Below the pieces are notes generated by a model. The model ran no database searches. It saw only the letters and a list, made by a program, of their open reading frames with translations, and had not been told where the DNA came from. Positions 2,625 through 26,903 of a stretch of 26,903 nucleotides of DNA are shown in pieces. The DNA is taken from positions 1 to 26,903 of IMG/VR virus record IMGVR_UViG_2917413769_000006, one strand, 5' to 3'. The position numbers were made by a program, and so were the translations under genes. Origin of the DNA: a virus. Taxonomy: Duplodnaviria; Heunggongvirae; Uroviricota; Caudoviricetes. How positions within the stretch are numbered: position 1 is the stretch's first letter; each line of letters begins with the position of its first letter.

Positions 2625-2816
2625 ATGTTCAAAAAGGCGGAGGTCGGGGAACATCTCCCCGATAACGGTCGCGCTCTCATAACCTGCAAGAATGGTAAGG
2701 TGACAGCACTCAGGAACATCTACGATGATGAGCACGTAGCATCGCTTAAGTCTTTGTTAGAGCTGGCAGAACAAGCGGGTTGTGTCGTTGTTCAAAGAGG
2801 AAAAAATAAGATATAA
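2625..2816 (+). CDS. small SOS-regulated protein (63 aa), function unknown; candidate antirepressor or SOS-induced effector
   Basis: ORF with good RBS directly downstream of the LexA-box promoter; no recognisable motif. Confidence 0.55.
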   Translation: MFKKAEVGEHLPDNGRALITCKNGKVTALRNIYDDEHVASLKSLLELAEQAGCVVVQRGKNKI

Positions 2817-2820
2817 TTAT

Positions 2821-2859
2821 GGTACCGGACTGAGCACCCGGCACCTGTATTTCTGAGCA
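2821..2859 (+). terminator. possible weak intrinsic terminator/attenuator hairpin
   Basis: 8-bp stem (ggtaccgg / ccggcacc, one mismatch) followed by a T-rich tract tgtatttct; lies between the 63-aa ORF and the next gene. A perfect 10-bp palindrome agcaattgct (2856-2865) follows. Confidence 0.3.
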
Positions 2860-2883
2860 ATTGCTGCGCTAAAGGGGAAACCA

Positions 2884-3480
2884 ATGGCGCAGTATTCATT
2901 TGTAAAATCAGCAGGCGGAGTATTAATTCCGGCGACACCTGATGCACGGGAATTTATCGAGAAAAAATTCCGTCTTGGTGCTGTTTTATATGCAGACTTT
3001 AAACAGGCACGTAATGCGGCATTTCACCGTAAATTTTTTGCACTCCTGAATCTTGGTTTCGATTACTGGCAACCGTCGGGCGGTGCAATGTCCCCGGCAG
3101 ATAAAAAACTGGTTCGTGGGTATGTGCAGCTGGTGGCCCATTATGCTGGCCATGAAGAAACACTCCAGGAACTGGCCGATCAGTATCTGCGTGAAGAGGC
3201 AGAAAAACGCGCCGGTAATATCAGCGCTGTAAAATCCTTTGAAGCCTTTCGCGCCTGGGTAACTATTGAGGCGGGTTTTTATACTCAATACGAAATGCCA
3301 GACGGTACTACCCGCAACGAACCCAAATCCATATCGTTCGCCAAAATGGACGATCTCGAGTTTTCCCAACTCTATAAATCCGTACTTGATGTGCTATGGA
3401 ATTATATTTTGTTCCGCACATTTCCCACCCAGCAGGCTGCAGAAAACGCCGCCTCACAATTATTCAGTTACGCCGCATGA
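2884..3480 (+). CDS. nin-region phage protein (DUF1367-like by recollection)
   Basis: 198-aa ORF with RBS; sits directly upstream of, and overlaps by ATGA with, a YbcO-like gene, as in lambdoid nin regions. Family name from memory, not verified. Confidence 0.55.
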   Translation: MAQYSFVKSAGGVLIPATPDAREFIEKKFRLGAVLYADFKQARNAAFHRKFFALLNLGFDYWQPSGGAMSPADKKLVRGYVQLVAHYAGHEETLQELADQYLREEAEKRAGNISAVKSFEAFRAWVTIEAGFYTQYEMPDGTTRNEPKSISFAKMDDLEFSQLYKSVLDVLWNYILFRTFPTQQAAENAASQLFSYAA

Positions 3481-3770
3481 AGAAAATCGATCTCACCAAA
3501 CAGGCGCGCGGTCGCATGTGTACTGTGCGCATTCCAGGTATCTGCAATTTTGATCCAGAAACCAGCGTTCTTGCCCATTATCGCATGAGTGACACCTGCG
3601 GGATGGGAATCAAACCACATGACATGCAAGGCGCAATTGCCTGCAACTGTTGTCATGACGTAATCGATGGCCGTGCAAAAACCGATATTGATCAGGACAC
3701 TCTGAGGCTATATCACGCCGAAGGTGTTTTCCGTACCCAACAAATCTGGAGAGAGGAGGCGTTTATATGA
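3477..3770 (+). CDS. YbcO-like protein (DUF1364), putative Zn-binding nuclease of lambdoid nin regions
   Basis: MKKIDLTKQARGRMCTVRIPGICNFDPETSVLAHYR...ACNCCHDVIDGR: Cys cluster and RIPG.CN..PETSVLAH motif resemble DLP12 YbcO as I recall it; ATGA overlap with the upstream gene. Confidence 0.7.
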   Translation: MKKIDLTKQARGRMCTVRIPGICNFDPETSVLAHYRMSDTCGMGIKPHDMQGAIACNCCHDVIDGRAKTDIDQDTLRLYHAEGVFRTQQIWREEAFI

Positions 3771-4345
3771 TTAACCCATCAACGACAGGAAAGGGTGGTG
3801 AAATGCTGCGATTAAACACCCTCGAGTCAGTCTGGATTCAGGGGAAACTTCGTATGTGGGGCCGATGGTCATATATTGGATCCGGCTCAGGTGGTGACAT
3901 GTTTAATAACCTTCTCGCGTCAAAAAAAGTCAGTAAAACTGCTATTCAGCAGGTGTTGAGGCATCTCAAATCATCGGGTCTGGATCACGGTGAACTGATG
4001 TCATATTTTCTGGACATGCTTTCCGGAAAAGAAAAAAGCAACCTTGCATTCTGTACCGATGAAGAAGGCCTGTTAATGGATGCTGTGATCGGTGAAATAT
4101 TAGTTCGGACTGGTCATCAGCGCCTTTTTAAATTGGTAGTTGATCGGTACAAGGATCGTATGAGTAAGAAGGCTATGGCAAGAGAACTGAATACTCGTCA
4201 CCCGGAATGGTGCCTACGTACCTGCGAAAGTCGAATTGATGTCTGGTTGCAGATGGCAGAAGCCATGCTGTACTTACCAATGTGTGATGTATTCGATAAA
4301 AAAGCTGATCGATTCCGGTTGCAAAGTTGCGCGGGGATTGCTTGA
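3767..4345 (+). CDS. late-gene antiterminator Q-like protein
   Basis: Position immediately upstream of terminator hairpins and the lysis cassette; N-terminal LESVWIQGKLRMWGRW resembles the LERWG.W start of Q-family antiterminators (QuuD-like). Alternative start ATG 3803. Confidence 0.65.
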   Translation: MINPSTTGKGGEMLRLNTLESVWIQGKLRMWGRWSYIGSGSGGDMFNNLLASKKVSKTAIQQVLRHLKSSGLDHGELMSYFLDMLSGKEKSNLAFCTDEEGLLMDAVIGEILVRTGHQRLFKLVVDRYKDRMSKKAMARELNTRHPEWCLRTCESRIDVWLQMAEAMLYLPMCDVFDKKADRFRLQSCAGIA

Positions 4346-4395
4346 ATTCAGCTATGCTCGCGAAGCTACACCCGCAGCGATAGATAAAAATTAAT

Positions 4396-4425
4396 AACCC
4401 GCCATCAAGCGGGTTTTGTCGTTTC
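4396..4425 (+). terminator. rho-independent terminator hairpin
   Basis: 7-bp GC-rich stem aacccgc / gcgggtt with 6-nt loop, followed by ttttgtcgtttc. Confidence 0.6.
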
Positions 4426-4646
4426 TGGAGGATGGAAAAATGAAATAGCTAAACGGAAATACCGTATTGGATACTATATTTTGGCAACGTGACGACAGCG
4501 TTAATCTGGTCGGGCTCTCATGGCGACGTAGTGAGGGAGAGAAAGCGTAAAGCATCACTGAGTTACGGTTGACGCCCGGTTTAACGCGTAAGTAGTCTGA
4601 TAAAGAGATAGTGCGCCGCGACCCTCACAGCGGCAACGATTAACGG

Positions 4647-4676
4647 ACCCCGGCATTTGCCGGGGTTTTCTTATTT
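4647..4676 (+). terminator. rho-independent terminator hairpin
   Basis: Stem ccccggc / gccgggg with loop attt, followed by ttttcttattt. Confidence 0.65.
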
Positions 4677-4711
4677 AAGGCCGCTGACAGGTCCGTTTAG
4701 TGCAACGCCTT

Positions 4712-4748
4712 TCCCCGTTTCCGCTCCTGGATATTCGGGGATTTTTTA
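4712..4748 (+). terminator. possible terminator hairpin (long loop)
   Basis: ccccg ... cgggg stem followed by attttttat; loop is 18 nt so less canonical. Confidence 0.35.
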
Positions 4749-4789: not shown

Positions 4790-5194
4790 ATGGTGGGTGA
4801 ACCTGTATCTGCCGTCACCGCTACGACGTTAACCCTGACCAGCGTTACTTTTGCGAGCCTTTTCGCTGATACTCCTGCGGGGGTTTATGTCGGGGCGTTT
4901 GCAGGTGCGGTTGTTTATGTTCTGTCATCGCAGGAATTGAGCAGGTTTGCGCAGGTCGGTTATTTCGTAGCGTCGTTTCTTATCGGCATACTTGGTGCCG
5001 ATTTTACGACAGCAATCCTGAATGGAATGCTCGGCAAGCATTTTCCTGATGGAGTAACGATCGGTAACTGGCTTGGCGCTACTGTAGCGGCAGCGGTTGG
5101 TGTCTGCATTCTGATTTCGTTGCGGAAAATCGACCCCAAAACAATCCTGAGCCGTCTGATATCCGGGGGGAGTGGGGATGGTAACGTTAAATGA
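4790..5194 (+). CDS. putative holin / lysis membrane protein
   Basis: 134-aa ORF with RBS AGGGGG; several strongly hydrophobic segments; first gene after Q and terminators, directly upstream of endolysin. Confidence 0.45.
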   Translation: MVGEPVSAVTATTLTLTSVTFASLFADTPAGVYVGAFAGAVVYVLSSQELSRFAQVGYFVASFLIGILGADFTTAILNGMLGKHFPDGVTIGNWLGATVAAAVGVCILISLRKIDPKTILSRLISGGSGDGNVK

Positions 5195-5474
5195 ATTTCT
5201 CCTGATCGTTAATGCTCTCGCTTGCGCAGTCAGCGCAACAACCCTCGGTACATTCCAGCGCAAAGGGGCGAAACACAAACGTATTGGCGCGTTTCTGGCG
5301 TTAGTGCTGATCATCGCCTGTGGCTCAGTAACTATCCAAATTCTTACCGGGGAATATACCGTAGCAAATCCATCGGAAACGGTGATCAACGTAATGCTGA
5401 CCATATTTATCGTTTCTGCAAAAGGGAATGTGATGCGGGTTTTTAACCGGAATGTAGTCAGTTCGGATAAATAG
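5178..5474 (+). CDS. putative holin / antiholin (small membrane protein)
   Basis: About 98 aa from ATG 5178 (GTG 5172 also possible), three hydrophobic segments, overlaps the preceding ORF and precedes the endolysin. Confidence 0.45.
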   Translation: MVTLNEFLLIVNALACAVSATTLGTFQRKGAKHKRIGAFLALVLIIACGSVTIQILTGEYTVANPSETVINVMLTIFIVSAKGNVMRVFNRNVVSSDK

Positions 5475-5487: not shown

Positions 5488-6099
5488 ATGAATAAATCAC
5501 AGTTTCAGAAGGCGGCTAATATCAGCGCCGAGTTAGCTGCGCGTTGGTTTCAGCCAATTGATGCGGCGATGGCTGAATTTGGCATAACTTCTGCCGATGA
5601 TCAGGCGATGTTTATCGCTCAGGTGGGGCATGAATCTGGAGGTTTCACACGAATTGTGGAAAACCTGAATTATTCTGCTGATGGCTTAAAAGCAACTTTC
5701 GGAAAGTATTTCCCCGGCGACACCGCTCAACAATACGGCCGCACTGCTGATCATCCGGCGGATCAAAAATCAATTGCAAATATTGTTTACGCCCACCGGA
5801 TGGGGAATATTGCAGAAAGCGATGGCTGGAATTATCGCGGTCGCGGCCTGATTCAGATTACCGGGCACGACAATTACCGGGATTGCGGCGCTGGCCTGGG
5901 TGCCGATTTGCTACTGGTTCCGCAGTTGCTGGAGCAGGACGAATATGCGGCTCGTTCGGCAGCGTGGTTCTTTGCCTCGAAAGGCTGCCTGAAACGCAGT
6001 GGCGATATTACGGCAGTAACAAAAATCATCAATGGTGGCACCAATGGCCTTGATGATCGTAAAGCTCGCTACGAAAAAGCGAAATCGGTACTGGTATGA
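5488..6099 (+). CDS. endolysin, glycoside hydrolase family 19 (chitinase-like lysozyme)
   Basis: 203 aa; motifs FIAQVGHESGGF, NYRGRGLIQITG, KIINGGTNGLDDR typical of GH19-type phage lysozymes; position in lysis cassette. Confidence 0.85.
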   Translation: MNKSQFQKAANISAELAARWFQPIDAAMAEFGITSADDQAMFIAQVGHESGGFTRIVENLNYSADGLKATFGKYFPGDTAQQYGRTADHPADQKSIANIVYAHRMGNIAESDGWNYRGRGLIQITGHDNYRDCGAGLGADLLLVPQLLEQDEYAARSAAWFFASKGCLKRSGDITAVTKIINGGTNGLDDRKARYEKAKSVLV

Positions 6100-6635
6100 G
6101 TGCACTGCTTGCCATAGCCGAGAAATACTGGAAGCCACTGGTGATCACGTTGCTGGTGGCTTTTTCGTTATGGCGTGTATTCAACGCGGGATATGAATCG
6201 GCTGATTCTGCCTGGAAGCAACAATGGCTACAGCGAGATCTGGCTGACTCAACCGCAACCTTACATAGAGAGGTTGCCGAGCGAACCGAAGAACGGCGGC
6301 GTCAGCAGGCGGCAGACGAGGAACGAAAACGTGCAGATGAGGAACTGGCAAAAGTACAGGCTGATGCTGACGCTGCTCAGCGGGCTGGTGATGGGTTGCA
6401 GCAACAACTCGCCACGCTACGCAGGCAACTCGCAGGAAGTGAAACCGGCCGCATTTCCGCAATTGCAGCAGCAGGCGCGGCAAAAGCCGAGACCACAAGA
6501 GTGCTTGCCGAGCTGCTTGGCGAATCTGACAAAAGAGCGGGCATCTATGCAAAAGAGGCTGATGAACGCTATGCAGCAGGATCAAGCTGCGAACGAACCT
6601 ACGACAAAGTGACAGGAACAAATAATGGAAATTAA
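6096..6635 (+). CDS. i-spanin (Rz-like)
   Basis: ATGA overlap with endolysin; N-terminal transmembrane helix (WKPLVITLLVAFSLW) followed by charged coiled-coil-like region; contains an embedded ORF in another frame. Confidence 0.75.
   Translation: MSALLAIAEKYWKPLVITLLVAFSLWRVFNAGYESADSAWKQQWLQRDLADSTATLHREVAERTEERRRQQAADEERKRADEELAKVQADADAAQRAGDGLQQQLATLRRQLAGSETGRISAIAAAGAAKAETTRVLAELLGESDKRAGIYAKEADERYAAGSSCERTYDKVTGTNNGN
6337..6612 (+). CDS. o-spanin (Rz1-like outer-membrane lipoprotein), embedded in the i-spanin gene
   Basis: Alternate-frame ORF wholly inside the Rz-like gene; MRNWQKYRLMLTLLSGLVMGC has signal peptide plus lipobox Cys; Pro/Gln-rich mature part with a further Cys (QECLPSC). 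Confidence 0.65.
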   Translation: MRNWQKYRLMLTLLSGLVMGCSNNSPRYAGNSQEVKPAAFPQLQQQARQKPRPQECLPSCLANLTKERASMQKRLMNAMQQDQAANEPTTK

Positions 6636-7023
6636 GTTGGTCAAATACTGGAAGGTTGAGTTATTCGAACAGCAGAAATCAGGGGTTTCTGTATTGATGG
6701 CTGAATCCAGGAAGCCATTTTTCACCGGATACTCAAAAGAGCGAATTAACCCCGAGAAAATCCACGGTAGCGAGTTTATTTCGCTAGCTCCGACTCCTGA
6801 TTCACTGGCACTTGAATCTGTTCGGTTGTATCGGGTTGATGAAATCAAATGCATCCCGGTTTACGAACAGGAAGTTGACTCTTTTGCAGAAGCCGCAGAG
6901 CCACTGATTAAATGGATGGCAGAAAGCGTTCACCCACACCACTCAGCGATCGTAACTTCGACTGGCGCGGAGCTATTGATGAGCGAAAAGACTCACAATA
7001 CCGAAAAATATCTCAAAGACTGA
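6625..7023 (+). CDS. hypothetical protein (moron between lysis cassette and terminase)
   Basis: 132-aa ORF with RBS (aggaacaaataATG); no recognisable motif; followed by about 210 bp of non-coding DNA. Confidence 0.5.
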   Translation: MEIKLVKYWKVELFEQQKSGVSVLMAESRKPFFTGYSKERINPEKIHGSEFISLAPTPDSLALESVRLYRVDEIKCIPVYEQEVDSFAEAAEPLIKWMAESVHPHHSAIVTSTGAELLMSEKTHNTEKYLKD

Positions 7024-7234: not shown

Positions 7235-8262
7235 ATGTCCAGAGCGAACTGGGAGGAACGATTATCCCTGTTCGCTGATGAATGGAAGCGAACGGAGATA
7301 TCACCAAAAGAGTGGTGTGAAAGAGAAGGGTACTCATGGGGAACGGCGAAAGCATACATCTCGATAAAGGCGGCAAAAGTGCTGCTTTCTTCAGATGGAG
7401 TTATCACCGAGAAGCCAGAAAAAAAAATTGCGAAAAAAAAAGTTCGGAAAAAATCGCGAATTCGGAGATAGAAAAAAGTGCTGAAGAGTTAGCGGAAAAA
7501 AATGGGCTGACGGCGAAGCAAAAAAAATTTATTGCCGAATATCAGAAAGATAATAACGCGACTCAGGCGGCGATTAGAGCCGGGTACAGCGAAAGGAACG
7601 CCGATAAAATCGGACCAGAGTTGCTGGGGAAAACTAGGGTAGCGAAAGAAATCGCGAATCTGCAGAAAGCCCACCTTTCCCGAACATTAATAAAAGCAGA
7701 CGACGTGCTCGAAAAAATGTGGCAGCTCGCCACCTTCGACGCTAACGAGATTTCTCAATATCGGCGTGGTGCCTGTCGTTACTGCTGGGGGTTTGGTCAT
7801 CATTATCAGTGGCGTGATGCAATCGAGTTTGAAGAAAAAAGCTCTGGTGCTCGAGCGAAGAAAGGCAAAGAGCCTAACGATGCTGGTGGATATGGTTACA
7901 ACCATAATGACGAACCTAATCCTGAATGTCCTCGCTGTAACGGTGACGGAGTAGGGCGTGCGCATTTCGCCGATACGACAAAACTTTCCTCTGTTGGCCG
8001 GCTTGCGTATTCCGGTACGAAGCTGGTTAAAGGTGGCATTGAGATTACTGCCATCAGCCGGGAAAAAATGTTTGAAGCGATTATGCGTAGATTAGGCCTT
8101 TCCGATACCGAACTGGCCCAACGGCTGCTTGAGCTTGAAATACGCAAACGTACTGCTGAGGCAGAACGTCTTGAGCATGAAACGGAGCTGAAGCGAAAAG
8201 GCAAAAGCGATGAGAAGCCGACCATCGTTATTAAACTGGTGAATTCCCCTGATGACGACTGA
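7235..8262 (+). CDS. terminase small subunit (P27/Terminase_2-like), reading frame split within A-rich tract 7419-7441
   Basis: N-terminal HTH-like segment MSRANWEERL...ISPKEWCEREGYSWGTAKAYIS from ATG 7235 stops at 7471; the Terminase_2-like core (LTAKQKKFIAEYQKDNNATQAAIRAGYSERNA...) continues in the adjacent frame to 8262. The two frames overlap across two A9 runs (7419-7427, 7433-7441). Confidence 0.65.
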
Positions 8263-9523
8263 ACACGTTATTAAGTTTTTGCCATTTCACGACGGGCAGA
8301 AAAAGATTTATCGATCTCCAGCAAAGAGAAAAGTAATCCGTGCTGGTCGCCGTTATGGCAAAACGACAATGCTTGAGCAGGCCGGGGGAAACTGGGCGGC
8401 ACGACAAATGCGAGTCGGTTGGTTTGCCCCGTCATATAAAATTCTTCTTCCGTCGTTCAAAGCGATTCGGGAACTGTTGAAGCCGATCACAACCAGTTCA
8501 AGTAAGACCGATTCGATTATTGAGACCATTGGCGGCGGTCAGGTCGAATTCTGGACTCTGGATAACCCCGACGCTGGGCGATCCCGTAAATATCACAAAG
8601 TCATCATTGATGAGGGAAGCCTGGTCAAAAAAGGCATGCGTGATATCTGGGAACAGGCAATCGAGCCGACACTGCTGGATTTCGACGGTGATGCTGTAAT
8701 GGCCGGTACGCCTAAGGGTGTGGATGATGAGAATTTTTTCTATCAGGCCTGCAATGATAAATCGATGGGGTGGGAGGAGCACCACGCGCCAACAGCTGCG
8801 AACCCAACGATTAACCCCGCAGCACTGGCGAGGATTATTGACGGTCGCCCGCCGATGGTTGTGCAGCAGGAATATAACGCAGAGTTTGTGGACTGGCGCG
8901 GACAGAACTTTTTCAAACTCGATTGGCTGCTGGAGAATGGCGAAGCTGTCGATTATCCGTTTGCCTGCGATACCGTTTATGGCGTTGTTGACTGTGCGCA
9001 GAAGGGGCAGTTACAGAACGACGGATCTGCGTGCATCTGGTTTGCGCTAAATTCGCTGCCGACGCCTCACCTGGTCATTCTCGATTGGGACATTATCCAG
9101 ATTGACGGTTATTTCCTGAAAGATGTGGTGCCGCAGTGGATAAACAAGGCCAAACAGCTTAGCGAAATCTGCCGGGCACGCATGGGCACCACCGGGCTGT
9201 TTATTGAGGATAAGGCCACCGGCATTACGCTGCTGCAACAAGGCGCTAATGAAGGCTGGAACGTTCACCCCATCGATAGCGAGTTAACGGCGCTGCCGAA
9301 AGAATCTCGCGCCATCAATATTTCTGGATATGTGGCGTCCGGGAAAGTTCGCATTTCTAAATACGCCTTTGACAAAATCGTTGAGTACAAGCAGTCGAAG
9401 AAAAATCATCTTCTGACACAGGTGCTCAAGTTCATCATCGGTGAAGAAGACCAGGACGACGATCTGTTTGATTGCTTTAACTACGGCGTCGCGCTGGGTC
9501 TGGGTAACGGAGAGGGGTTCTGA
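8252..9523 (+). CDS. terminase large subunit
   Basis: 423 aa; Walker A-like GRRYGKTT near N-terminus, acidic motif VIIDEG; overlaps terS stop. Confidence 0.85.
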   Translation: MTTEHVIKFLPFHDGQKKIYRSPAKRKVIRAGRRYGKTTMLEQAGGNWAARQMRVGWFAPSYKILLPSFKAIRELLKPITTSSSKTDSIIETIGGGQVEFWTLDNPDAGRSRKYHKVIIDEGSLVKKGMRDIWEQAIEPTLLDFDGDAVMAGTPKGVDDENFFYQACNDKSMGWEEHHAPTAANPTINPAALARIIDGRPPMVVQQEYNAEFVDWRGQNFFKLDWLLENGEAVDYPFACDTVYGVVDCAQKGQLQNDGSACIWFALNSLPTPHLVILDWDIIQIDGYFLKDVVPQWINKAKQLSEICRARMGTTGLFIEDKATGITLLQQGANEGWNVHPIDSELTALPKESRAINISGYVASGKVRISKYAFDKIVEYKQSKKNHLLTQVLKFIIGEEDQDDDLFDCFNYGVALGLGNGEGF

Positions 9524-10959
9524 TGCAGGACGACGATATTTGCATGGGTAGTAATGCTGGCGTCCTCAGTAAGATTCTGGAGGGCGACAGCATTGAACCC
9601 GGTGCGCAGGCGGGGTATGAGCTCTGCAAGCTGATTTACCTGTTTCACCCGCTGGGCGGAAAGATGGTCGACCGACCGATAAAACTGGCGATGTCGGAAC
9701 CACGAACCGTACATGTAACGCGCGGGCCTGAGAAGCGGTTGCGTGAGGCGTTCGAACGGGAATGGAAAGCGATTAAAGCCGATCGCATTATTGCGAATAC
9801 TGCACGCCAGTCCCGTATTTATGGTGTTGGCGCAGTCGTGATGCTCATTGAAGGCGAGCCCACGAACGAGGCCGCAGGGTTCGATACGCTTTACAGAAAA
9901 TCCATCACCTTTAACGTGCTGGATCCGCTGAACACTGCCGGTTCTGTAGTGCTCAATCAGGATCCTAACTCTGCTGATTTCCAGAAAGTGGGAAGCGTTA
10001 CCGCGGCAGGCAAGCCTTATCACCATAGCCGTTGCTGCGTGATGATGAACGAGGATCCGATCTATCTGGCCTACACGCCATCGTCTTTCGGGTTTGCCGG
10101 GCGCAGCGTTTACCAGCGTGCACTTTATCCACTGAAATCATTCATTCAGTCGATGCGCGCTGATGACATGGTGACGATTAAAGCCGGGCTGCTGGTGGCG
10201 TTCATCAAACAGGCCAGCTCCATCGTCAATAACATGATGCAGAAAATGTCCGGGATTAAACGCTGGATGTTGAAACGCGGTGGTAACGGTGACGTGTTGC
10301 AGGTAGGAGAGAATGACAAGATTGAATCTCTCGACATGCAGAACCTCGAAAAGCCGCTGGATACTGCCCGTAACCACATTCTGGCGAATATCGCGACGGC
10401 GGCAGATATGCCCGCGATTCTGCTCAACAGTGAGACGTTTACGCGCGGGTTTGGTGAAGGAACAGAGGATGCAAAAGCGGTCGCCCAGTATATCGACGAT
10501 GTACGTAAAGATTTGCAGCCGCTTTATGATTTTTTCGTGCGCATCGTTCAGTACCGGGCGTGGTCACCTGAATTTTTCGACGCTCTGAAAAACGATTTGC
10601 CCGAGTACAAGAGTCTCAGTTGGGAGGCGGCTTTCAGTTCCTGGGTGAACAATTTTGAATATGTCTGGCCTTCGTCTCTGAAAGAGCCGGAAAGTGAAAA
10701 AGTCAAAGTCGATGAAACGCGCTTTAAGGCGATCACTGAGATGTTGACTGTGCTGCTTCCGCAACTCACCAAAGACCCGGAAAACAGGGCGACGCTTATT
10801 AAGTGGGCCTGTGAGAATGCCAACATGAACGAAAACCTGTTTGCCGATCGGCTTGAGCTGGATTATGAGCTGCTGGAGAAATTCCCTCCGGATCCACCTT
10901 CAACAAGCAATGATAGGGAGGATGGTGATAATGGCCTCATTCGTGAAAGAGCTGCGTGA
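9523..10959 (+). CDS. portal protein
   Basis: 478-aa ORF immediately after terL (ATGA overlap); size and position; no motif independently confirmed. Confidence 0.7.
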   Translation: MQDDDICMGSNAGVLSKILEGDSIEPGAQAGYELCKLIYLFHPLGGKMVDRPIKLAMSEPRTVHVTRGPEKRLREAFEREWKAIKADRIIANTARQSRIYGVGAVVMLIEGEPTNEAAGFDTLYRKSITFNVLDPLNTAGSVVLNQDPNSADFQKVGSVTAAGKPYHHSRCCVMMNEDPIYLAYTPSSFGFAGRSVYQRALYPLKSFIQSMRADDMVTIKAGLLVAFIKQASSIVNNMMQKMSGIKRWMLKRGGNGDVLQVGENDKIESLDMQNLEKPLDTARNHILANIATAADMPAILLNSETFTRGFGEGTEDAKAVAQYIDDVRKDLQPLYDFFVRIVQYRAWSPEFFDALKNDLPEYKSLSWEAAFSSWVNNFEYVWPSSLKEPESEKVKVDETRFKAITEMLTVLLPQLTKDPENRATLIKWACENANMNENLFADRLELDYELLEKFPPDPPSTSNDREDGDNGLIRERAA

Positions 10960-15880: not shown

Positions 15881-15892
15881 GCGAGGGACGCC

Positions 15893-19508: not shown

Positions 19509-20095
19509 TTGCTGTGAAAATTGACCGCAAACTGAATTTTGTCAGCACCATCACGCGCGATGATGGCTCTCTGGTTTATCTGCACGTCACGCCTTTCCCG
19601 TATGAGGTAGTAGAGGAAAACTGCGTTCTGCTGGGAAATCTGTTCAATAACTTTTTCACGATGGTCGGCACCGTCGGCGCACCGCGCGTGGCCGCCATGA
19701 TGCTGCGAAAAGTCCTCAAGTCACAGCAGGATAATGGGGCTATGCCGGATGGCACGCCGACGCTGATGGATGATATCGAGCGGCTGACCACCGTTATCTG
19801 GAAAGATGACGGTGTGTGGAAATCGGTTCCCCTGGCGGCGGCATTCAAGGGGGGAATTATCACCCCCGATGAATACCGGGAAGTTGAAGGCGAGGTGGTT
19901 TTTTTTATGGTGAGCTCTGCCATTCAAAAAGCGGATCTGCTCTCGGGAACGATGGGAAAATCGCTCGAAATGTACAGTGGGCAACTCGTCTCATTGAACG
20001 TTATGGCGTATCGCGATTCTTTACCGACGTCGAAAACGGATACCGATACCCCGATCCCGGAAGCCCAGCCGGAACTATCGCACATACCCTCCTGA
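19499..20095 (+). CDS. putative tail assembly chaperone
   Basis: GTG start at 19499 or 19514; located between tube and tape-measure genes. No overlapping alternate-frame ORF of 60 aa or more in the track. Confidence 0.4.
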   Translation: MGLIAVKIDRKLNFVSTITRDDGSLVYLHVTPFPYEVVEENCVLLGNLFNNFFTMVGTVGAPRVAAMMLRKVLKSQQDNGAMPDGTPTLMDDIERLTTVIWKDDGVWKSVPLAAAFKGGIITPDEYREVEGEVVFFMVSSAIQKADLLSGTMGKSLEMYSGQLVSLNVMAYRDSLPTSKTDTDTPIPEAQPELSHIPS

Positions 20096-20218: not shown

Positions 20219-22039
20219 ATGGCAGCTAAATCCGTTGTTGAAATTGATGTGCAGGACGAGAAATTTCAGTCGTTTCTTGAAAAATTTGGAGAGTATCAAA
20301 AAGCCCTCGAGGAGCTTCCGGATCAGTGGCGCGGCATTGCCCAGGGCATGGGCGACACGACCAAAGAAACGGAAAAAGCCCGCGGGCTCACCGAGGCCGT
20401 AACCAAAGCGTTCAACGATGGTGTCGCGTCGATAGCGTCGCTGAATGATGGCCTCGACCGGCTTAATGGCAATCTGGAAAAGGCTAATAAAACCCAGTCG
20501 GAGCTCAACAAAAAATCCGGCGGCGCGGGCAAATTCCTGAAACAAGCCAGCAAGGATGCGAAATCGCTCGCCGGGCACATCAAGAATGCGACGACAAGTT
20601 TGCTTTCGTGGGGCTCCGTTCTTGGGCTGTTCTCCGGGCTGGCGGGCGCGGGCAGTCTGTGGGGCCTGAATCGTCTTTCCGGTTCGGCATCCGCGCAGCG
20701 CTTTACCGCGATGGGGCTCGGTACCACGGCGGGCGGTCTGAATTCAGCCGCGATTAATTATCAGAAGATTTTGGGCAACCCAACCGGCACGCTCGGGGCC
20801 ATCCGCGATGCACAGATGGACCTGAGCAAACGCTGGCAGTTTAAGGCGCTGGGTATCGATAACGCCGATCAGGACCCGGCCAAAATGCTGCCACAGCTCA
20901 TACGCGGCGCGCGTGATGCGTTTGTTCGTAGTGGCAGTTCGCAGCAGGGGGCCGAGGCCTACGGGCTGACGAACTATTTCAGCCTGGACGACCTGAACCG
21001 CTTCAAAAAAATGAGCGATGCCGAAATCAACGCCATGACGAAGCAGGCTCAGGTTGACGCGCAAAAGCTCCAGATCTCGGATGCGCAGCTGCGGCAGTGG
21101 CAGGATTTCAATATTCAGCTCGACCGAAGCAAAACCAGCGTTGAGAACACGTTTATTAAAGGCCTCGCGCCACTGGCGCCACAGCTTGGAAAACTCTCCG
21201 ATGCGTTTTCCGGCGCTATCGAAACCGTTCTGAAATCTCCTGAGCTGGGGAAATGGATCGACGGTTTATCAAGTGGCATTCAGCGGTTCGGCAACTATCT
21301 CGCTTCGCCTGAATTCAAAACCGACGTTGAAGCGTTTATGTCCGGTGTTGAACGGATGGGCCGCATGATCGGCAAGGTTATCGACTGGGTAACCGGCAAG
21401 TCGAAAATCACCGTTGATGACGTCAAATCACACTCATCCATTTTGTCTGACAAGCCAGTGAGGGACCCCGGCACTGGGAAAAGTTATGTGCCCGGGAGCG
21501 ACGACGACCCTCGCGTTTGGGGATGGCTGAAGGGAGTACGCCATTTCTTCTCGAGTGGCAAGGTCACGCCTGTTGATCCACAGCAGGCCGATGTGAATGC
21601 GAAAGGCCGGACGATTGCGGACCGGTTCAACAACCCGGCCAACCTGCGCGCGGCTAGCGGGTACGAAACGGCCAATACCAAAAGCGGCAAATTTGCTGTT
21701 TTCCCGACGCTGGATGAGGGCGTTCTTGCCGCGGCAAAACAGCTGCAACTCTACGGCTCCCGGGGTATCAACAACATTCACGATATTGTCGGTAAGTGGG
21801 CTCCCCCGAACGAGAACAACACCCAGGCTTATATTCAGCACGTTGTGAAAGCGACCGGCCGCAGTGAGCACGAAAGTTTGAACCTGGGGGATCCGAAGCT
21901 GCTGGCGAAGCTGATTTCGGCCATGTCGGTGAAAGAGGGGGCGGGCTCGCGTGTCAGCGAGGAGAAAGTTATTCAGATATTCAACAACACAGGCGGAAAC
22001 GCGATTGTTTCAAGCACTCAACTCGGAGGTTACAGCTGA
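20219..22039 (+). CDS. putative tail tape measure protein
   Basis: 606 aa, largest tail gene, coiled-coil-like N-terminal region and Gly-rich hydrophobic segment (WGSVLGLFSGLAGAGSLWGL); position after the chaperone. Confidence 0.55.
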   Translation: MAAKSVVEIDVQDEKFQSFLEKFGEYQKALEELPDQWRGIAQGMGDTTKETEKARGLTEAVTKAFNDGVASIASLNDGLDRLNGNLEKANKTQSELNKKSGGAGKFLKQASKDAKSLAGHIKNATTSLLSWGSVLGLFSGLAGAGSLWGLNRLSGSASAQRFTAMGLGTTAGGLNSAAINYQKILGNPTGTLGAIRDAQMDLSKRWQFKALGIDNADQDPAKMLPQLIRGARDAFVRSGSSQQGAEAYGLTNYFSLDDLNRFKKMSDAEINAMTKQAQVDAQKLQISDAQLRQWQDFNIQLDRSKTSVENTFIKGLAPLAPQLGKLSDAFSGAIETVLKSPELGKWIDGLSSGIQRFGNYLASPEFKTDVEAFMSGVERMGRMIGKVIDWVTGKSKITVDDVKSHSSILSDKPVRDPGTGKSYVPGSDDDPRVWGWLKGVRHFFSSGKVTPVDPQQADVNAKGRTIADRFNNPANLRAASGYETANTKSGKFAVFPTLDEGVLAAAKQLQLYGSRGINNIHDIVGKWAPPNENNTQAYIQHVVKATGRSEHESLNLGDPKLLAKLISAMSVKEGAGSRVSEEKVIQIFNNTGGNAIVSSTQLGGYS

Positions 22040-22755
22040 TGGCGTTCACCCGCGAACTCTACAAACTCGGCTTTGAAATCTCGCCGGTGATCCTTTGTGA
22101 TGGTGTGGCGCAGAGTATTCCCGGCGGCATGCTGCCTGTTGTGGCTCTCACGCAGAGCGCCAGCTACGTGACCGGGCTGCTGGGCGGTGCAATCGAGCTC
22201 ACCGACATGGACAAGTATTTTTGTCACTGGAAGGTCGCCCAGGGCGGAACGATGGTCGATTATGACATTGGCCGCTATCCCTTTGCGAACCAGGCGGTCG
22301 CCGCAAACGCTTTACTGTCTCAGCCGCTACGCGTTCCGATGCTGATGGATGCACCTGTGAATGAAAACACCGGCGCGATGACAAAGCTGGTCACGCTGAG
22401 TGCGCTGCAGATGGTCCTGCAGGCTCATGCCAACCTGGGCGGAACGTTCACGGTCGCAACGCCCAGCCTGATTTACAGCAACTGCATACTGCGCACCGTC
22501 CGCGATGTGACCGGCTCGAATGAGCCGCTGCCGCAGCGACAATGGCTGTGGGAGTTTGAGCAGCCCCTCATAACTGAAACCAGCGCAGAGCAGGCCACCA
22601 ACAATTATTTGAGCAAAATTGACAACGGCGATAAAGCCACGGAAAGCGCCTGGACAAGCACGGTTTCAGCGATCGGCAACACGTCGCTCGGTAGTAGTGT
22701 TTCCGGGGCCATTATTGGCTTAATCGGCAAACTCAGCGGGACATTCAACCTATGA
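22039..22755 (+). CDS. tail/baseplate-associated protein
   Basis: 238-aa ORF with TGATG overlap with the tape-measure stop. Confidence 0.4.
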   Translation: MAFTRELYKLGFEISPVILCDGVAQSIPGGMLPVVALTQSASYVTGLLGGAIELTDMDKYFCHWKVAQGGTMVDYDIGRYPFANQAVAANALLSQPLRVPMLMDAPVNENTGAMTKLVTLSALQMVLQAHANLGGTFTVATPSLIYSNCILRTVRDVTGSNEPLPQRQWLWEFEQPLITETSAEQATNNYLSKIDNGDKATESAWTSTVSAIGNTSLGSSVSGAIIGLIGKLSGTFNL

Positions 22756-23027
22756 GCACTGCGCTTTATCCCTTCTCCGGAAACGAGCAAAAAAGTATGG
22801 CCTTTACGCCGATCCTCGATGGCGAGGTCTACAACTGCCAGACAAAGTGGAATATTGCCGGCCAGCGCTGGTACCTCAATATTACTGATAACTCCGGCGC
22901 GAGGCAGCTGACCATGCCCATCGTCGGCTCACCTGACGATTTCGATATAAATCTGCTGTTGGGGGTATTCAGCTCGACAAAAATGGTGTGGCGCATTTCC
23001 AGCGGGCAGATCGAGGTAATCAACTGA
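22752..23027 (+). CDS. small tail protein
   Basis: 91-aa ORF translationally coupled on both sides. Confidence 0.35.
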   Translation: MSTALYPFSGNEQKSMAFTPILDGEVYNCQTKWNIAGQRWYLNITDNSGARQLTMPIVGSPDDFDINLLLGVFSSTKMVWRISSGQIEVIN

Positions 23028-24070
23028 TGCGCTTTTATGATATCCAGATTTTCAACGCCGCTGATGCCAGCGGCAACCCGGGCGCGTTATACCGGCGCTA
23101 CAGTAGCCTGAAAAATGGCGTCTACAATCCCGGCAGCCTGATGGTCGAATTCGATTTGCTGCGGTTTGGTGAATCGACGCCACAGGGACAAAGCAGCATT
23201 ACGGTGTGGGGTATCAGCCCTCAGGAAATGCAGCAGGCCCGTCAGGATATGTTCGGCAAGTCCATCAAAATGTGGGTGGGCATGTCGAAGGGATTGCCGC
23301 TAGCTAATCCTGCTCAGAGTGGCCTGGTGCTTGATGGAACAATCTGGCAGGTGCTGGGGAACTGGCAGGGAACAGAGTTACGGATGGATCTCATTGTTAC
23401 CGCCGGGGCCGTGTCCAGTGTAAATCCTGCACCGCTGGCGCCCATCAATTTAACCGTGCCCTGGAACAAGGGAATTAAGCTCTCTGTTGCCCTGACGCAG
23501 TGTTTCCAGAATATGGGCGGTGGATATCGTTTCTCGATTAGCGTCAGCGATCGGCTGATCAATAACTTCGACAGCAATATGTTCTGTGGAAGCCTTACTG
23601 AACTTGCGTCAAAACTGAAATCGCTGAGTAAAGGCATCATCCGGGACGCGAATTACTCCGGCGTCGAAATCACGATGGTCAACGGCAAAGAAATCCGGGT
23701 TTTCGACAACGATTTCGATAATCACCAGGATAAAGACTCGAAAAAAAGCGCGTCATACCGGAATAAAAAACCTGTCCAGATTGATTTCAAAGACCTGGTG
23801 GGGCAGCCGACATGGGTGCAGTTTGGCACCGTCAGCATTCCCTGCGTGATGCGCAGCGATATCCAGGTGGGCGATTACATCCGGATGCCGAAGAAGCTGC
23901 GCCCGATGATCCAGGCTTCTTCTTATTCGCAGTTCCGCGACGACTCCGCATTTACGGGCGATTTTCTGGTGTCTTCGGTCCGGTTACTGGGAAACAGCAG
24001 GCAGCCCGATGCAAACAGCTGGGTAACGGTGCTGGAGGCCCATCCAACCGGAGGAATAGCCGCACAATGA
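23027..24070 (+). CDS. putative baseplate hub/assembly protein (Mu gp44/P-like by position)
   Basis: About 347 aa from ATG 23027 (TGATG overlap). Confidence 0.45.
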   Translation: MRFYDIQIFNAADASGNPGALYRRYSSLKNGVYNPGSLMVEFDLLRFGESTPQGQSSITVWGISPQEMQQARQDMFGKSIKMWVGMSKGLPLANPAQSGLVLDGTIWQVLGNWQGTELRMDLIVTAGAVSSVNPAPLAPINLTVPWNKGIKLSVALTQCFQNMGGGYRFSISVSDRLINNFDSNMFCGSLTELASKLKSLSKGIIRDANYSGVEITMVNGKEIRVFDNDFDNHQDKDSKKSASYRNKKPVQIDFKDLVGQPTWVQFGTVSIPCVMRSDIQVGDYIRMPKKLRPMIQASSYSQFRDDSAFTGDFLVSSVRLLGNSRQPDANSWVTVLEAHPTGGIAAQ

Positions 24071-24783
24071 GCCTGAATAAAAAACTGAATTTTGGCGGCA
24101 ATATGCATAGCTTTGCCGACCAGAAGATTGCCGATGCCATGCAAATGGCGGGCAAGGTGTTACCGGCGAGCGTAGTGGCGCGTTCCGGCCACATGATCAC
24201 CGTCTCTTTCCTCCTGCGCGACATACCCTATGTGCTGCCACAAATCACGATACCGCTGTTTGGCCCGGAGTACATTCGCTATCCCATGCGCAAAGGCAGT
24301 AAAGGGATTGTGATCCCCGCTGATACCTACCTGGGCGGCGCCAGCGGCCTCGGCGGGGGAACGGCTGACCTCACGCCGCCTGCAAACCTCAGCGCGCTGG
24401 TGTTCCTGCCGATCAGCAACACCGAATGGCAGGACGTCGATTACAACGTGCTGACGCTTTACGGGCCGGAGGGGATCACGCTTCGGGATTCAGCCAGCAA
24501 GACGACGTTTCTGCTCACGCCGCAGAGCATCACGATCGCCACGCCTTCGCAGTTTCAGGTAACGGTCGGCGGAACGGTGTTAACGCTGACTGAAGGCATG
24601 TGGTCGCTGACAGGCCAGAGCGGAACGCTGAAGGACAGCGCCGCCAGCACCAGCCCACAAATTATGCATGAGGGCTGGCAGCAGCTGCTGCAGTGGCTTA
24701 ATTCACATCAGCACAGCAACGGCAACGACGGGAATAATACCGGAGGGCCGACGTCACAATTCGACGGGAGTATTACTGAATGA
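24067..24783 (+). CDS. putative baseplate spike protein (gpV-like by position)
   Basis: About 238 aa from ATG 24067 (ATGA overlap); Gly/Asn-rich C-terminus. Confidence 0.4.
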   Translation: MSLNKKLNFGGNMHSFADQKIADAMQMAGKVLPASVVARSGHMITVSFLLRDIPYVLPQITIPLFGPEYIRYPMRKGSKGIVIPADTYLGGASGLGGGTADLTPPANLSALVFLPISNTEWQDVDYNVLTLYGPEGITLRDSASKTTFLLTPQSITIATPSQFQVTVGGTVLTLTEGMWSLTGQSGTLKDSAASTSPQIMHEGWQQLLQWLNSHQHSNGNDGNNTGGPTSQFDGSITE

Positions 24784-25112
24784 GAACTTATGGCCGGGAT
24801 GGAGCGGGTAACTGGGTTACGGTCACTACCGATGAAAATGGCTACAACGATGCGGTCTGGCTCACTACCCTGGTGCAGAATTTGAAGCTGGCGCCGCAGG
24901 AATCCCCCTTTTTTGCTAACCACGGTATTCCGGCGAATGGCTCAGTGATTCAGCAGATCCTGCCGACATTTTATGTTAACCGGCTCCAGCAGCAGTTCAG
25001 CCCGTATTTCTCCTCTCTCCAGATAGCGCTGATGGAATCTGACCCGCCCGTATACAACATCTCAGCGATCACAAACTCTGGTTCTAAAATTGTCACACAG
25101 GTATACGTATGA
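24780..25112 (+). CDS. putative baseplate wedge protein (gpW / gp25-like by size and position)
   Basis: 110-aa ORF coupled to neighbours. Confidence 0.4.
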   Translation: MRTYGRDGAGNWVTVTTDENGYNDAVWLTTLVQNLKLAPQESPFFANHGIPANGSVIQQILPTFYVNRLQQQFSPYFSSLQIALMESDPPVYNISAITNSGSKIVTQVYV

Positions 25113-26335
25113 GCGATTTACCCGTTAATTATGATATTGCTGGCCCGGTACCGCAGACGACGGATGCGCTGCGCCAGATGGTCATTGATACCGCAACGCA
25201 GCTCTCCCCGGGCATTACGACAGACTTACCGGGTTCACTGGTCGAAGACATGGTGAGCACCAGCGTCGGTGCGCTGGTTGTCGTGGATCAGGCCCGGGTT
25301 GATTTGATTAACTCCTGCAGCCCGTATGCGGCGAACGTGCACCTTCTGGCGCAGCTCGGCGGGATGTACGGCGTGCAGAAAGGGCAGGGAACAAATACGT
25401 CGGTTTATGACGTGTTTTCCGGGCCGCCGGGCTTTGCCATCCCGAAAGGGTTCATCATCGGTGACGGTACTTACACCTATTCCGTACAGCGCGATACGAT
25501 GATCCCCAGCAGTGGCCAGACAGAGCCGGTGTATTGCCTGGCGACGACGGAGGGAACCTGGGCTGTCCCTGCGGGTTCAGTCAATCAGATCAAAACCTCG
25601 TTGCCGGATGGCATAGCCATCACCTGCACGAATCTTACAGACGGGCTGCCCGGCGCGCAGGAACAAACCTTTGCATCATATCGATCGCAGGTCTTTCAGG
25701 CGGGAATGTACGGCGTGCAGGGAACGCCCGATTGTTACCGAATCGAGCTGAAGAACGTCTATGGCGTGCAGGAGAATCTGATCTCGTATCGGCAGGCTGC
25801 TTTGGGCGCGTGGGTAGCCGTTGTGGGTGGTGGTGATCCGTATGAGGTGGCTTACGCCATCTATAAAGCGGTACCGGACATTTCAGTTTTGACGAATGAC
25901 GTTTCCAACCCGTCCGGCTCGCCCGTCGAGAAAAAAACAATTCCGATCACGGTTTATCCCGATACTTATCAGGTGCCGATGGTGGTTCCCTCTTCACAGA
26001 ATGCCTCCGCGCTGATCACCTGGAATACTGTATCCACCACTTATATTGACCCAACGGGAATTGCGAAGGCCGTTCAGCAAAATATTGCTGACTATATCAA
26101 TGCGATTGCCGTCGGTGAGCCTATCAATATTTTCCAGATTCAGGATATTTTCCTGACGTCAGTACAGGGCCTGGTGCCTGCATCGCTTATTTCGATGATT
26201 GACATCCAGATCGGTATTAATGGGGTGATTGTCCCGCCGTCGGCTGATTCAAGCCTGGTATACGGTGACACTTACGCCTATTTCTCCACTTCCGCTGATA
26301 AAATTCAGGTTAAGCAATATGGCAGCACCTCTTGA
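25109..26335 (+). CDS. putative baseplate J-like protein
   Basis: 408-aa ORF following the small wedge-like gene, as in Mu/P2 baseplate clusters. Confidence 0.45.
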   Translation: MSDLPVNYDIAGPVPQTTDALRQMVIDTATQLSPGITTDLPGSLVEDMVSTSVGALVVVDQARVDLINSCSPYAANVHLLAQLGGMYGVQKGQGTNTSVYDVFSGPPGFAIPKGFIIGDGTYTYSVQRDTMIPSSGQTEPVYCLATTEGTWAVPAGSVNQIKTSLPDGIAITCTNLTDGLPGAQEQTFASYRSQVFQAGMYGVQGTPDCYRIELKNVYGVQENLISYRQAALGAWVAVVGGGDPYEVAYAIYKAVPDISVLTNDVSNPSGSPVEKKTIPITVYPDTYQVPMVVPSSQNASALITWNTVSTTYIDPTGIAKAVQQNIADYINAIAVGEPINIFQIQDIFLTSVQGLVPASLISMIDIQIGINGVIVPPSADSSLVYGDTYAYFSTSADKIQVKQYGSTS

Positions 26336-26903
26336 AACGATTATTCCGGCGTATCCGTACACGCAGTACAACGATGACCCGAACATCGTGGCCTTTTTCC
26401 AGGCCTACAACAAAATCGTCCAGGGTTATCTGGATTATCTGAATTCGTTAAATCTTCCGTGCTGGACGTCACCGGCTATCACCGGGGATCTTCTCGACTG
26501 GATTGCTTTGGGCATTTACGGAGAGACACGCCCGTTATTGCAGGTATCTCAGGAAGCGATAGCTAAGGGGGCTTATAACACCATTGACTACAACACGATC
26601 CCCTATGCCGGGATGAAAAACTTCGTGCCAGGCGCGACGACCTATGTAGTCGATGATTACTTCAAGCGGATCCTGACCTGGAATTTTTATAAAGCCGACG
26701 GTTTTCAGTTCAATCTGGACTGGTTGAAAAGGCGCATCGCACGCTTTCTCTGTGGTCCGAATGGCATTGATCCTCCCGTAACTAACACCTTTGATATTTC
26801 TGTCGTTCCGAACAACGGTGTATTCGTGATTATCCTTCCTGATTCAACTGACAGCGTCGGGGTTTTTCTGAAAGAGGCAATAGAGCAGGGGATCGTAAAG
26901 CTG
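26319..26903 (+). CDS. putative tail protein (gpI-like), 3'-partial at window end
   Basis: ATG at 26319 opens a frame that runs without a stop to the end of the window (MAAPLETIIPAYPYTQYNDDPNIVAFF...); not in the supplied ORF track because it has no stop. Confidence 0.45.
   Translation, partial: MAAPLETIIPAYPYTQYNDDPNIVAFFQAYNKIVQGYLDYLNSLNLPCWTSPAITGDLLDWIALGIYGETRPLLQVSQEAIAKGAYNTIDYNTIPYAGMKNFVPGATTYVVDDYFKRILTWNFYKADGFQFNLDWLKRRIARFLCGPNGIDPPVTNTFDISVVPNNGVFVIILPDSTDSVGVFLKEAIEQGIVKL

Follow-up and report, generated by a model that had tools for sequence, protein, structure and literature searches.

This study concerns a stretch of tailed-phage DNA of 26,903 nucleotides (IMG/VR virus record IMGVR_UViG_2917413769_000006; Caudoviricetes), hereafter called the window. 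Our analysis indicates that the window is, very probably, the late half of a temperate, contractile-tailed myovirus prophage that lies in or right beside the family Felixviridae, with a lambda-style Q/lysis arm located 5′ of the structural core of that family. The type phages of the Felixviridae are Klebsiella RothC/RothD and Chronis and Pantoea PdC23, and the element represents a new, rearranged member of this known and recently named family. An earlier sequence-only reading had described lambdoid nin, Q and lysis genes joined to a Mu-like head and contractile-tail module, as in phages SfV and phiP27, and had regarded this as context rather than novelty. The latter judgement was sound, since the architecture is the norm among enterobacterial relatives. 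The assignment of the morphogenesis genes to a Mu-like module did not hold.

The window carries the structural core of the Felixviridae

In the 2025 ICTV scheme, the Felixviridae are built on a conserved structural core of 20,241 bp, gp1–gp24, which was annotated via fold similarity to phage Pam3 (PMC12629751, PMC12451628). This colinear core (~20 kb, RothC gp1–gp24) was found in the window. By tblastn, all 20 proteins from the large terminase subunit TerL to the J-like baseplate protein were colinear with those of RothC, the amino acid identity being 38% for TerL and 52–79% for the other 19. Because of this 20-gene colinearity at mostly 52–79% identity, we rejected a chance resemblance to RothC. 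The TerL-to-J proteins were also encoded in the same order in an Escherichia coli prophage (NZ_CM174221.1). At the DNA level, positions 16280–20074 showed 74% identity to Klebsiella phages RothC, RothD and Chronis; the E. coli prophage, which is from ST536, was matched in patches.

Out of 50,697 phage records, tblastn searches with the sheath and with the capsid protein retrieved an identical set of 14, namely five Yersinia vB_YenM phages, RothC and RothD, Chronis, two records of PdC23, Rac-SA53, Actinobacillus vB_Apl-pPE4, and Shewanella QDWS with a duplicate. No further sheath was detected among the 50,697 records at E≤5. The Yersinia vB_YenM_06.16-1 group has isometric heads and contractile tails, as visualized by electron microscopy (PMC9224151). 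The sheath and capsid proteins of RothC and PdC23 are 66% and 79% identical, respectively, and the corresponding values for the window and RothC were 74% and 76%. This comparable divergence placed the window within the span of the family.

The structural genes of Felixviridae-type prophages are mostly named 'hypothetical' or carry names that contradict their family matches. In positions 17640–35960 of NZ_CM174221.1, RefSeq assigns TerL to the 'MalT transcriptional regulator family' and the portal to the 'anti-CBASS protein Acb1 family', while the J-like wedge is listed as 'ubiquitin-activating E1 FCCH domain' and the protein in the spike position as 'LolA-like'.

Cassettes are exchanged around a conserved core

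The block of ~19 kb from TerL to the baseplate wedges is a conserved, co-inherited lineage core that travels as a unit. A scan of genome contigs with the capsid protein yielded nine loci, none of which was identical to the window. The core block was present in Rahnella (capsid 82%), in Martelella, and in metagenome bins labelled Nitrospira, Desulfobulbia, Parcubacteria and Rhodanobacter, and none of these loci carried the nin/Q/lysis genes of the window. The Rahnella locus has a different set of holin, lysozyme and Rz genes 5′ of its terminase.

In the sequence comparisons, the closest relative differed between the nin/Q segment, the lysis cassette and TerL. Positions 2416–4755 were 96% identical in nucleotide sequence to NZ_CM174221.1, in which the same trio of DUF1367, YbcO and DUF1133 genes is followed by a lysis cassette. 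This identity broke off at ~4755, just past the terminator at 4645–4668. The two holins and the endolysin of the window had no counterpart in the lysis cassette of the E. coli prophage, and the Rz proteins were 67% identical in amino acid sequence. Over positions 7696–9523, which comprise the 3′ end of the gene for the small terminase subunit TerS and the TerL gene, the nucleotide identity to the same prophage was 81%, and it amounted to 66–70% in the remainder. TerL showed 94% amino acid identity to its counterpart in NZ_CM174221.1 as against 38% to RothC, whereas the adjoining portal was ~63% identical to both. This indicates that the TerL allele was exchanged independently of the remaining core. 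We conclude that the mosaicism of the window reflects lambdoid-style exchange of cassettes within the family and with lambdoid neighbours, and that it does not represent a lambdoid–Mu junction.

A Q gene, a lysis cassette and a terminase were found 5′ of the core in all enterobacterial members, as exemplified by RothC, NZ_CM174221.1 and Rahnella; the early/lysis arm of RothC comprises cI, cro, cII, O/P, NinE, NinG, Q, holin and endolysin. Furthermore, two phages, Rac-SA53 and vB_Apl-pPE4, combine a Q of the DUF1133 type with a Felixviridae-type core. This makes it improbable that the nin/Q/lysis segment is a recent and unusual graft, forming a novel mosaic junction instead of the family norm, even though these genes are missing from the distant Martelella, Nitrospira, Desulfobulbia and Rhodanobacter members. 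Traces of a graft could likewise be seen in the break in identity right past the terminator and in a lysis cassette that differs from the one in the closest E. coli relative, but swapping alleles of a cassette is usual in lambdoid mosaicism.

The morphogenesis genes are not related to those of Mu

Mu, SfV, phiP27 and ST64B were the references named in the sequence-only reading, and the comparison with these phages was run. Lysis genes were all that the window had in common with them, the holins resembling phiP27 L28/L29 and the endolysin resembling ST64B sb52 (Table 1). In BLASTP, the sheath, portal, F-like, capsid, hub and J-like proteins were aligned with the corresponding Mu proteins at E>0.3 throughout, and the sheath of the window aligned with that of SfV at E=0.71. 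As a positive control, the SfV and Mu sheaths were compared and these matched with 36% identity at E=3e-89, which showed that the test is able to detect a true Mu-like tail. Tblastn with all window proteins revealed no structural match in Mu, SfV, phiP27 or ST64B. When profile hidden Markov models built from the window and up to eight relatives were run against the six-frame open reading frames of the same four phages, nothing was detected at E≤10. Likewise, hhalign comparisons with the Mu-type sheath, tube, N, hub, spike, W, I, portal, F, protease and capsid proteins remained below a probability of 2%.

For the individual modules, the sheath and tube did not match Mu gpL and gpM, and upon comparison of the baseplate with gp43–gp48 (N, P, gp45, gp46, gp47, gp48) the J-like protein was the sole scorer, with an hhalign probability of 70% (E=4e-5) against the Mu gp47 family. 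Concerning the Mu-type head set (gp29, gpF, gpI, gpT), BLASTP and hhalign searches against gp29, gpI and gpT were empty and only a short motif was shared with gpF. The protein at 10931–11806 is called F-like on account of its match to phrog_324 and of a D-x-R..P.H ... CRC motif in common with Mu gpF, of which R201, H204, C245 and C247 are invariant within the family; it had no match in Pfam, NCBIfam or hhalign. The gpF domain is widespread and occurs also in SPP1 gp7.

We therefore consider it extremely unlikely that the head and contractile-tail genes form a Mu-like module and that the whole is a mosaic of the SfV/phiP27/ST64B type. The tail and baseplate order from the sheath to W, J and I does parallel Mu gp39–gp48, but this order is generic and the plug gene of the window is not present in Mu. 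The J-like protein, which matches Baseplate_J and remotely Mu gp47, and the CRC motif of the F-like protein are likenesses that stand against otherwise negative BLASTP, tblastn, family-profile and hhalign searches with a positive SfV–Mu sheath control. Similarly, the resemblance of the holins and endolysin to those of phiP27 and ST64B is not accompanied by common structural genes. The heads are of different kinds, being of the HK97 type in SfV, phiP27 and ST64B, of the gp29/gpT type in Mu and of the DUF1073/DUF2184 type in the window. The Pfam families that would be expected of Mu-type head and tail proteins were absent among the window matches. Lastly, the truncated Gin-like invertase at 1628–1987, which resembles Mu gin, was the sole Mu-related sequence found; it is located outside the morphogenesis module and lacks the catalytic N-terminus.

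The tail and baseplate genes follow the order of Pam3

The succession of portal, F-like, scaffold, capsid, sheath, tube, tape measure, hub, spike, W, J and I genes is the generic order of simple myophages. In Pam3, the order is tail terminator gp12, sheath gp13, tube gp14, tape measure protein, tube initiator gp17, plug gp18, hub gp19, spike gp20, sheath initiator gp21, wedge gp22/gp23 and fibre gp24 (PMC9942802). Pam3 gp12–gp24 maps one-to-one onto positions 16730–26903 of the window plus the downstream fibre gene, which is located on a second contig containing the same prophage (GCA_005781065.1). As in Pam3, a gene for a 91-amino-acid protein is located between the tube initiator and the hub, and because of this extra plug gene the order fits Pam3 better than Mu. 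When the family profile of the 91-amino-acid protein was compared with the PDB, it matched the 'spacer protein gp019' of 9NDY (E=6.5e-4), Phi92 gp136 (E=0.014) and a protein with a Pam3 plug domain (E=0.26), whereas the match to Pfam Pam3_gp18 (E=0.0011) was below the cut-off. These matches lend modest support to the assignment of this protein to the plug/spacer family.

With regard to the gene roles proposed in the sequence-only reading, the portal, capsid, tape measure and J-like proteins were borne out by family matches, and the sheath and tube assignments were right; the W-, V- and I-like roles were assigned by position only. The confirmed fold of the tube also resembles that of Hcp and PVC tubes. 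A weak match to Phage_tail_terminator_9 (E=0.0085) would be compatible with the 312-amino-acid neck protein being the tail terminator, and the homologue of the tape measure protein in NZ_CM174221.1 is named lytic transglycosylase. No further family clues for the tail and baseplate proteins were obtained from Pfam at E≤10 or NCBIfam at E≤1, and the I-like wedge fragment had no Pfam match. When the sheath, capsid, portal and F-like proteins were searched against PDB sequences, as single sequences or as profiles, no meaningful match was obtained.

Late gene control and lysis

The sequence-only reading had correctly recognized a modular region with lambdoid nin/Q/lysis genes 5′ of a contractile-tail block, as the YbcO, Q, holin, GH19 and Rz/Rz1 genes were all found. 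A Q-family gene is located directly 5′ of the lysis and late genes, as in lambdoid late control, and the holin, endolysin and Rz/Rz1 genes are followed by the terminase as in a lambdoid cassette. The small open reading frame at 6337–6612, which is embedded in the Rz gene, is predicted to encode Rz1. Every late gene at 2625–26903 lies on the + strand, and the ~30 late open reading frames are uninterrupted.

The DUF1367 protein of the nin region showed 99% amino acid identity to that of NZ_CM174221.1. The Q-like protein exceeded the cut-off of 26 bits for Phage_antitermQ (PF06530) and matched four Q-like PHROGs, including phrog_753 'anti-termination protein Q-like' (E=4e-63); its match to the solved Q21 (6P18) was weak (E=0.02). 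Homologues of this DUF1133-type protein are named Q in lambdoid Klebsiella and E. coli phages, which are siphophages. The spacer between Q and the first holin gene has a length of 445 bp and contains two terminator-like hairpins, of which the strong intrinsic terminator at 4645–4668 is a candidate for a tR′-like target of Q. Were late control to work as in lambda-type phages, a late promoter within this spacer would be the site where the Q-like protein modifies RNA polymerase. The modified polymerase would then read through the terminator at 4645–4668, giving rise to a single long + strand transcript that could serve lysis, packaging, head, neck, tail and baseplate genes.

The prophage is rearranged

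The window makes up the final 26,903 bases of contig PDIL01000006.1 (GCA_004745435.1), and the same prophage is present as a whole on the 300-kb contig VATL01000016.1 of GCA_005781065.1, at ~98.9–140 kb. The prophage adjoins yccA, and the host flank (hspQ, rlmI, yccX, tusE, yccA) is ~92% identical to E. coli, from which we conclude that the host is a non-coli Escherichia. On the GCA_005781065.1 contig, the immunity/replication region (repressor, Cro, YdaT, replication protein, DnaB) follows the tail-fibre genes and lies on the strand opposite to the late genes. In RothC and NZ_CM174221.1, by contrast, this region is located upstream of the late genes and is co-oriented with them. The ~30-kb block of nin, Q, lysis and morphogenesis genes has thus been inverted in place, with deletions, relative to the immunity/replication region and to the flank on the attR side; this was seen from positions 1–2180 of the window together with 13568–21103 of locus L017 and 1–7000 of locus L021 on VATL01000016.1. 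The inversion cuts Q off from early rightward transcription, and the prophage may therefore be defective.

At the left junction (~1983), the truncated Gin-like invertase abuts a truncated C5 methylase; the other inversion junction falls at ~15.3–15.9 kb of L017. An IS3-family element sits between a gene for a 90-amino-acid protein at the end of the prophage (1–273) and the invertase fragment, and both this gene and the invertase fragment are inverted relative to the late genes. At its other end (26903), the window stops together with PDIL01000006.1 within the gene for the I-like wedge, and the assembly breaks just ahead of the tail-fibre/invertible region. Positions 14091–15955 of the GCA_005781065.1 locus (L017) hold genes for a hexapeptide acetyltransferase and a membrane protein of the DoxX family, together with part of a second tail-fibre assembly gene. 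All three are on the opposite strand, flanked by the tail-fibre assembly gene and the inverted early region, and they are possibly morons or remnants of an invertible fibre segment.

That the block represents a head-less contractile particle (a tailocin or extracellular contractile injection system), or else a domesticated element resembling a gene transfer agent, is hardly conceivable: although the inverted Q/late block, the IS3 insertion and the truncated genes are compatible with decay or domestication and the tube fold is also like that of Hcp and PVC tubes, the late open reading frames are intact, the close relatives RothC/D, Chronis, PdC23 and the vB_YenM group are plaque-forming (PMC9224151), and the tailocin or injection-system reading was rejected because the head and packaging genes (TerS, TerL, portal, capsid, head morphogenesis) are complete and intact.

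A NUDIX domain fused to a core head protein

The 524-amino-acid head protein of the core consists of an N-terminal NUDIX domain, a DUF2213-like part, a long scaffold-like coiled coil rich in Lys, Ala, Asp and Glu (KADAEA-type) and a conserved C-terminal domain. Its NUDIX box is intact (G32–F54; G32...REVMEECGF). Seven of the nine family members examined have kept the NUDIX domain, and the two without it are distant members (Desulfobulbia and the Parcubacteria bin). The fusion was found from Escherichia to contigs labelled Nitrospira and Rhodanobacter, and the protein has >2,000 clustered homologues. As regards the substrate, database matches were of the generic MutT/NudI-like kind. An AlphaFold2 model of the fusion, based on a 23-sequence alignment, had a mean predicted local distance difference test (pLDDT) score of 52, with values <50 for the NUDIX domain; this was too poor for a fold search and the model was not used.

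The retention of the NUDIX fusion from Escherichia to Nitrospira-associated members, together with its dispensability in two lineages, fits an accessory function in counter-defence or host takeover. We would tentatively picture the NUDIX domain as riding on the scaffold-like part into the procapsid and being released with the DNA to hydrolyse a nucleotide-derived molecule early in the next host, a scenario that we regard as rather unlikely. Candidate targets may be immune signals, RNA caps or derivatives of NAD/ADP-ribose.

The neighbouring 290-amino-acid virion protein also matches PHROGs of Ig-like 'virion structural proteins', and its homologue in PdC23 is named 'endosialidase'. A domain at residues 174–243 of this protein and the domain inserted in the sheath (residues 55–151) belong to the same PHROG, phrog_9998, for which the sole, weak outside matches in tblastn were 'tail fiber' and 'phage stabilization' proteins. 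An Ig-like decoration domain is possibly shared by the sheath and the 290-amino-acid protein.

Taxonomic placement and implications

Several points weigh against reading the window as the late half of a Felixviridae prophage with lambda-like late control. Firstly, the core alone gave a nucleotide identity × coverage of ~0.50 with RothC, which would at best denote another genus or subfamily. Secondly, our placement was based on core colinearity and amino acid identity, while the ICTV criterion is a proteomic tree. Thirdly, a promoter scan of the Q–holin spacer (4345–4790) did not reveal a consensus sigma-70 promoter, so that the late promoter and the Q-binding site were not located. Fourthly, the chaperone, tube initiator, spike, sheath initiator and neck proteins owe their roles to position only. 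Lastly, the prophage is rearranged, and its late operon may no longer be expressed.

Within the Felixviridae, the genus threshold (Nakavirus or Chronisvirus) is a nucleotide similarity of at least 70%, and that for the subfamily Maevirinae is at least 45%. The parts outside the core have nothing in common with RothC, and the whole-genome value would be <45%, short of both thresholds. On the basis of this nucleotide similarity, the prophage would represent a separate genus, and probably a separate subfamily, from RothC.

The main value of these findings lies in the correct filing of the element, Felixviridae-type prophages being common in Enterobacterales. A Mu-like label would misdirect the calling of accessory slots as well as inferences on host range and tail fibres, for which the Felixviridae core and the virion structure of Pam3 are the proper references. 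The region is an example of an old, phylum-spanning structural block that takes up regulatory and lysis cassettes from the local pool of host phages.

Table 1. Annotated features of the window, with coordinates, strand and supporting evidence
Feature	Position	Strand	Evidence
IS3-family element	335-1569		orfA HTH_Tnp_1, orfB rve; 402-aa fused product in source annotation
Gin-like serine invertase fragment	1628-1987	-	C-terminal two-thirds: Resolvase positions 79-144 and HTH_7; 68% nucleotide identity to Mu gin
Small nin-region protein, 63 aa	2625..2816	+	phrog_340 E=1e-17; 92% aa identity to NZ_CM174221.1
DUF1367 protein, YbcN-like	2884..3480	+	PF07105 E=9e-84; phrog_319 (PHROG name NinB/Orf recombination mediator)
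YbcO-family putative nuclease	3477..3770	+	PF07102 E=3e-40; start as in L020 gene call
Q-like late antiterminator, DUF1133 type	3767..4345	+	PF06576 E=1e-80 (269 bits); PF06530 Phage_antitermQ 34 bits
Bidirectional intrinsic-terminator-like hairpin	4396..4415	.	Directly 3′ of Q
Strong intrinsic terminator	4645..4668	+	10-bp stem, 7 GC pairs, T-run; Q–holin spacer
Holin, Phage_holin_8	4790..5194	+	PF16931 E=1e-17; phrog_198; 37% identity to phiP27 L28
Second holin, three transmembrane segments, Phage_holin_3_7	5172..5474	+	PF05449 E=2e-18; phrog_217; 26% identity to phiP27 L29, E=2e-8
GH19 endolysin	5488..6099	+	PF00182 35 bits (cut-off 25.5); phrog_181 E=3e-87; 62% identity to ST64B sb52
Rz-type i-spanin, DUF2514	6096..6635	+	PF10721 E=1e-31; phrog_312 E=4e-53
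Predicted Rz1-type o-spanin lipoprotein	6337..6612	+	Embedded in Rz, +1 frame; MRNWQKYRLMLTLLSGLVMGC..., signal peptide, lipobox Cys
132-aa protein between lysis and packaging genes	6625..7023	+	phrog_16206; 51% identity to NZ_CM174221.1
TerS	7336..8262	+	PF03592 E=2e-28; phrog_51
TerL	8252..9523	+	phrog_2 E=3e-33
Portal, DUF1073 / Phage_portal_3 type	9520..10959	+	PF06381 54.6 bits; phrog_146 E=2e-72; no similarity to Mu gp29
Head-morphogenesis protein, remotely Mu gpF / SPP1 gp7-like	10931..11806	+	phrog_324 E=5e-38
524-aa core head protein	11807..13381	+	PF00293 E=8e-18; weak PF09979; phrog_6216 E=4e-255
290-aa virion protein (RothC gp7 equivalent; decoration or scaffold?)	13402..14274	+	phrog_6268 E=4e-95; 62% identity to RothC
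Major capsid protein, DUF2184 / PF09950 type	14292..15323	+	PF09950 34.8 bits (cut-off 26.8); phrog_6671, phrog_264; 76% identity to RothC
Four head-completion/neck genes (161, 141, 159, 312 aa)	15395..17668	+	Family-specific PHROGs only; roles by position relative to Pam3 (PMC9942802)
Tail sheath	17673..19067	+	phrog_205 'tail sheath' E=3e-50; 75.6% identity to Yersinia vB_YenM_06.16-1
Tail tube, 145 aa	19071..19508	+	Tube fold confirmed
Probable tail assembly chaperone	19508..20095	+	Position between tube and tape measure; phrog_11810 (function unknown)
Tape measure with C-terminal lytic transglycosylase domain	20219..22039	+	phrog_7694, phrog_2276 (tape measure), phrog_873/7182 (transglycosylase)
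238-aa tube-initiator-position protein (Pam3 gp17 / Mu gp43 slot)	22039..22755	+	Positional; phrog_7750 only
91-aa baseplate plug/spacer protein	22752..23027	+	Family profile against PDB
Baseplate hub	23027..24070	+	phrog_196 'baseplate hub' E=6e-41; no similarity to Mu gpP
238-aa spike-position protein	24067..24783	+	Positional, no family match; PdC23 homologue named 'puncturing protein'
110-aa sheath-initiator-position protein (W / gp25-like)	24780..25112	+	Positional; phrog_7986 only
J-like baseplate wedge	25109..26335	+	PF04865 Baseplate_J 29.3 bits (cut-off 21.1)
Second wedge (I-like), cut by window end	26319..26903	+	207 aa in full on GCA_005781065.1 contig; PdC23 homologue DUF2612

Comparison with known systems

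Mu, SfV, phiP27 and ST64B resemble the window in having a contractile tail, a simple baseplate and a similar general gene order, and in SfV, phiP27 and ST64B, too, a myovirus tail is found alongside Q/lysis control. A further difference is that the window has no transposition genes. A tRNA scan detected no tRNAs in the window, whereas RothC and phiP27 have tRNAs after Q.

The 'minimal myophage' Pam3 has the same tail order as the window, including the slot for the chaperone, and there is the weak match to its plug family. As a cyanophage, Pam3 differs in host and lifestyle, and the sheath, capsid and F-like proteins of the window were without detectable sequence or profile similarity to PDB sequences.

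With the lambda-type Q control of lambda, 82 and 21 and of the DLP12/Rac nin regions, the window shares the succession of YbcN/YbcO-type nin genes, Q and a spacer with an intrinsic terminator, next to which come the holin–endolysin–Rz/Rz1 cassette and then the terminase. It differs in that its Q is of the DUF1133 branch, scores only marginally against Phage_antitermQ and matches Q21 weakly, in that two holin genes from different families are present, and in that the late block is separated from the early operon by an inversion.

The closest relatives are the Felixviridae themselves. Compared with RothC, the window has a different TerL allele, a different type of Q (DUF1133) and a different lysis cassette (two holins and GH19), and compared with the family in general it is a rearranged prophage copy with an IS3 insertion. 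Yet it has the same head set of portal, F-like, NUDIX, 290-amino-acid and capsid proteins as RothC/RothD (Nakavirus sapi), vB_Kpn_Chronis and PdC23 (Certevirus), and it shares the tail and baseplate set of the family and of the unclassified Yersinia vB_YenM_06.16-1 group. Like the Felixviridae, the element is that of a temperate phage of an enterobacterial host with a lambda-style early/Q/lysis arm.

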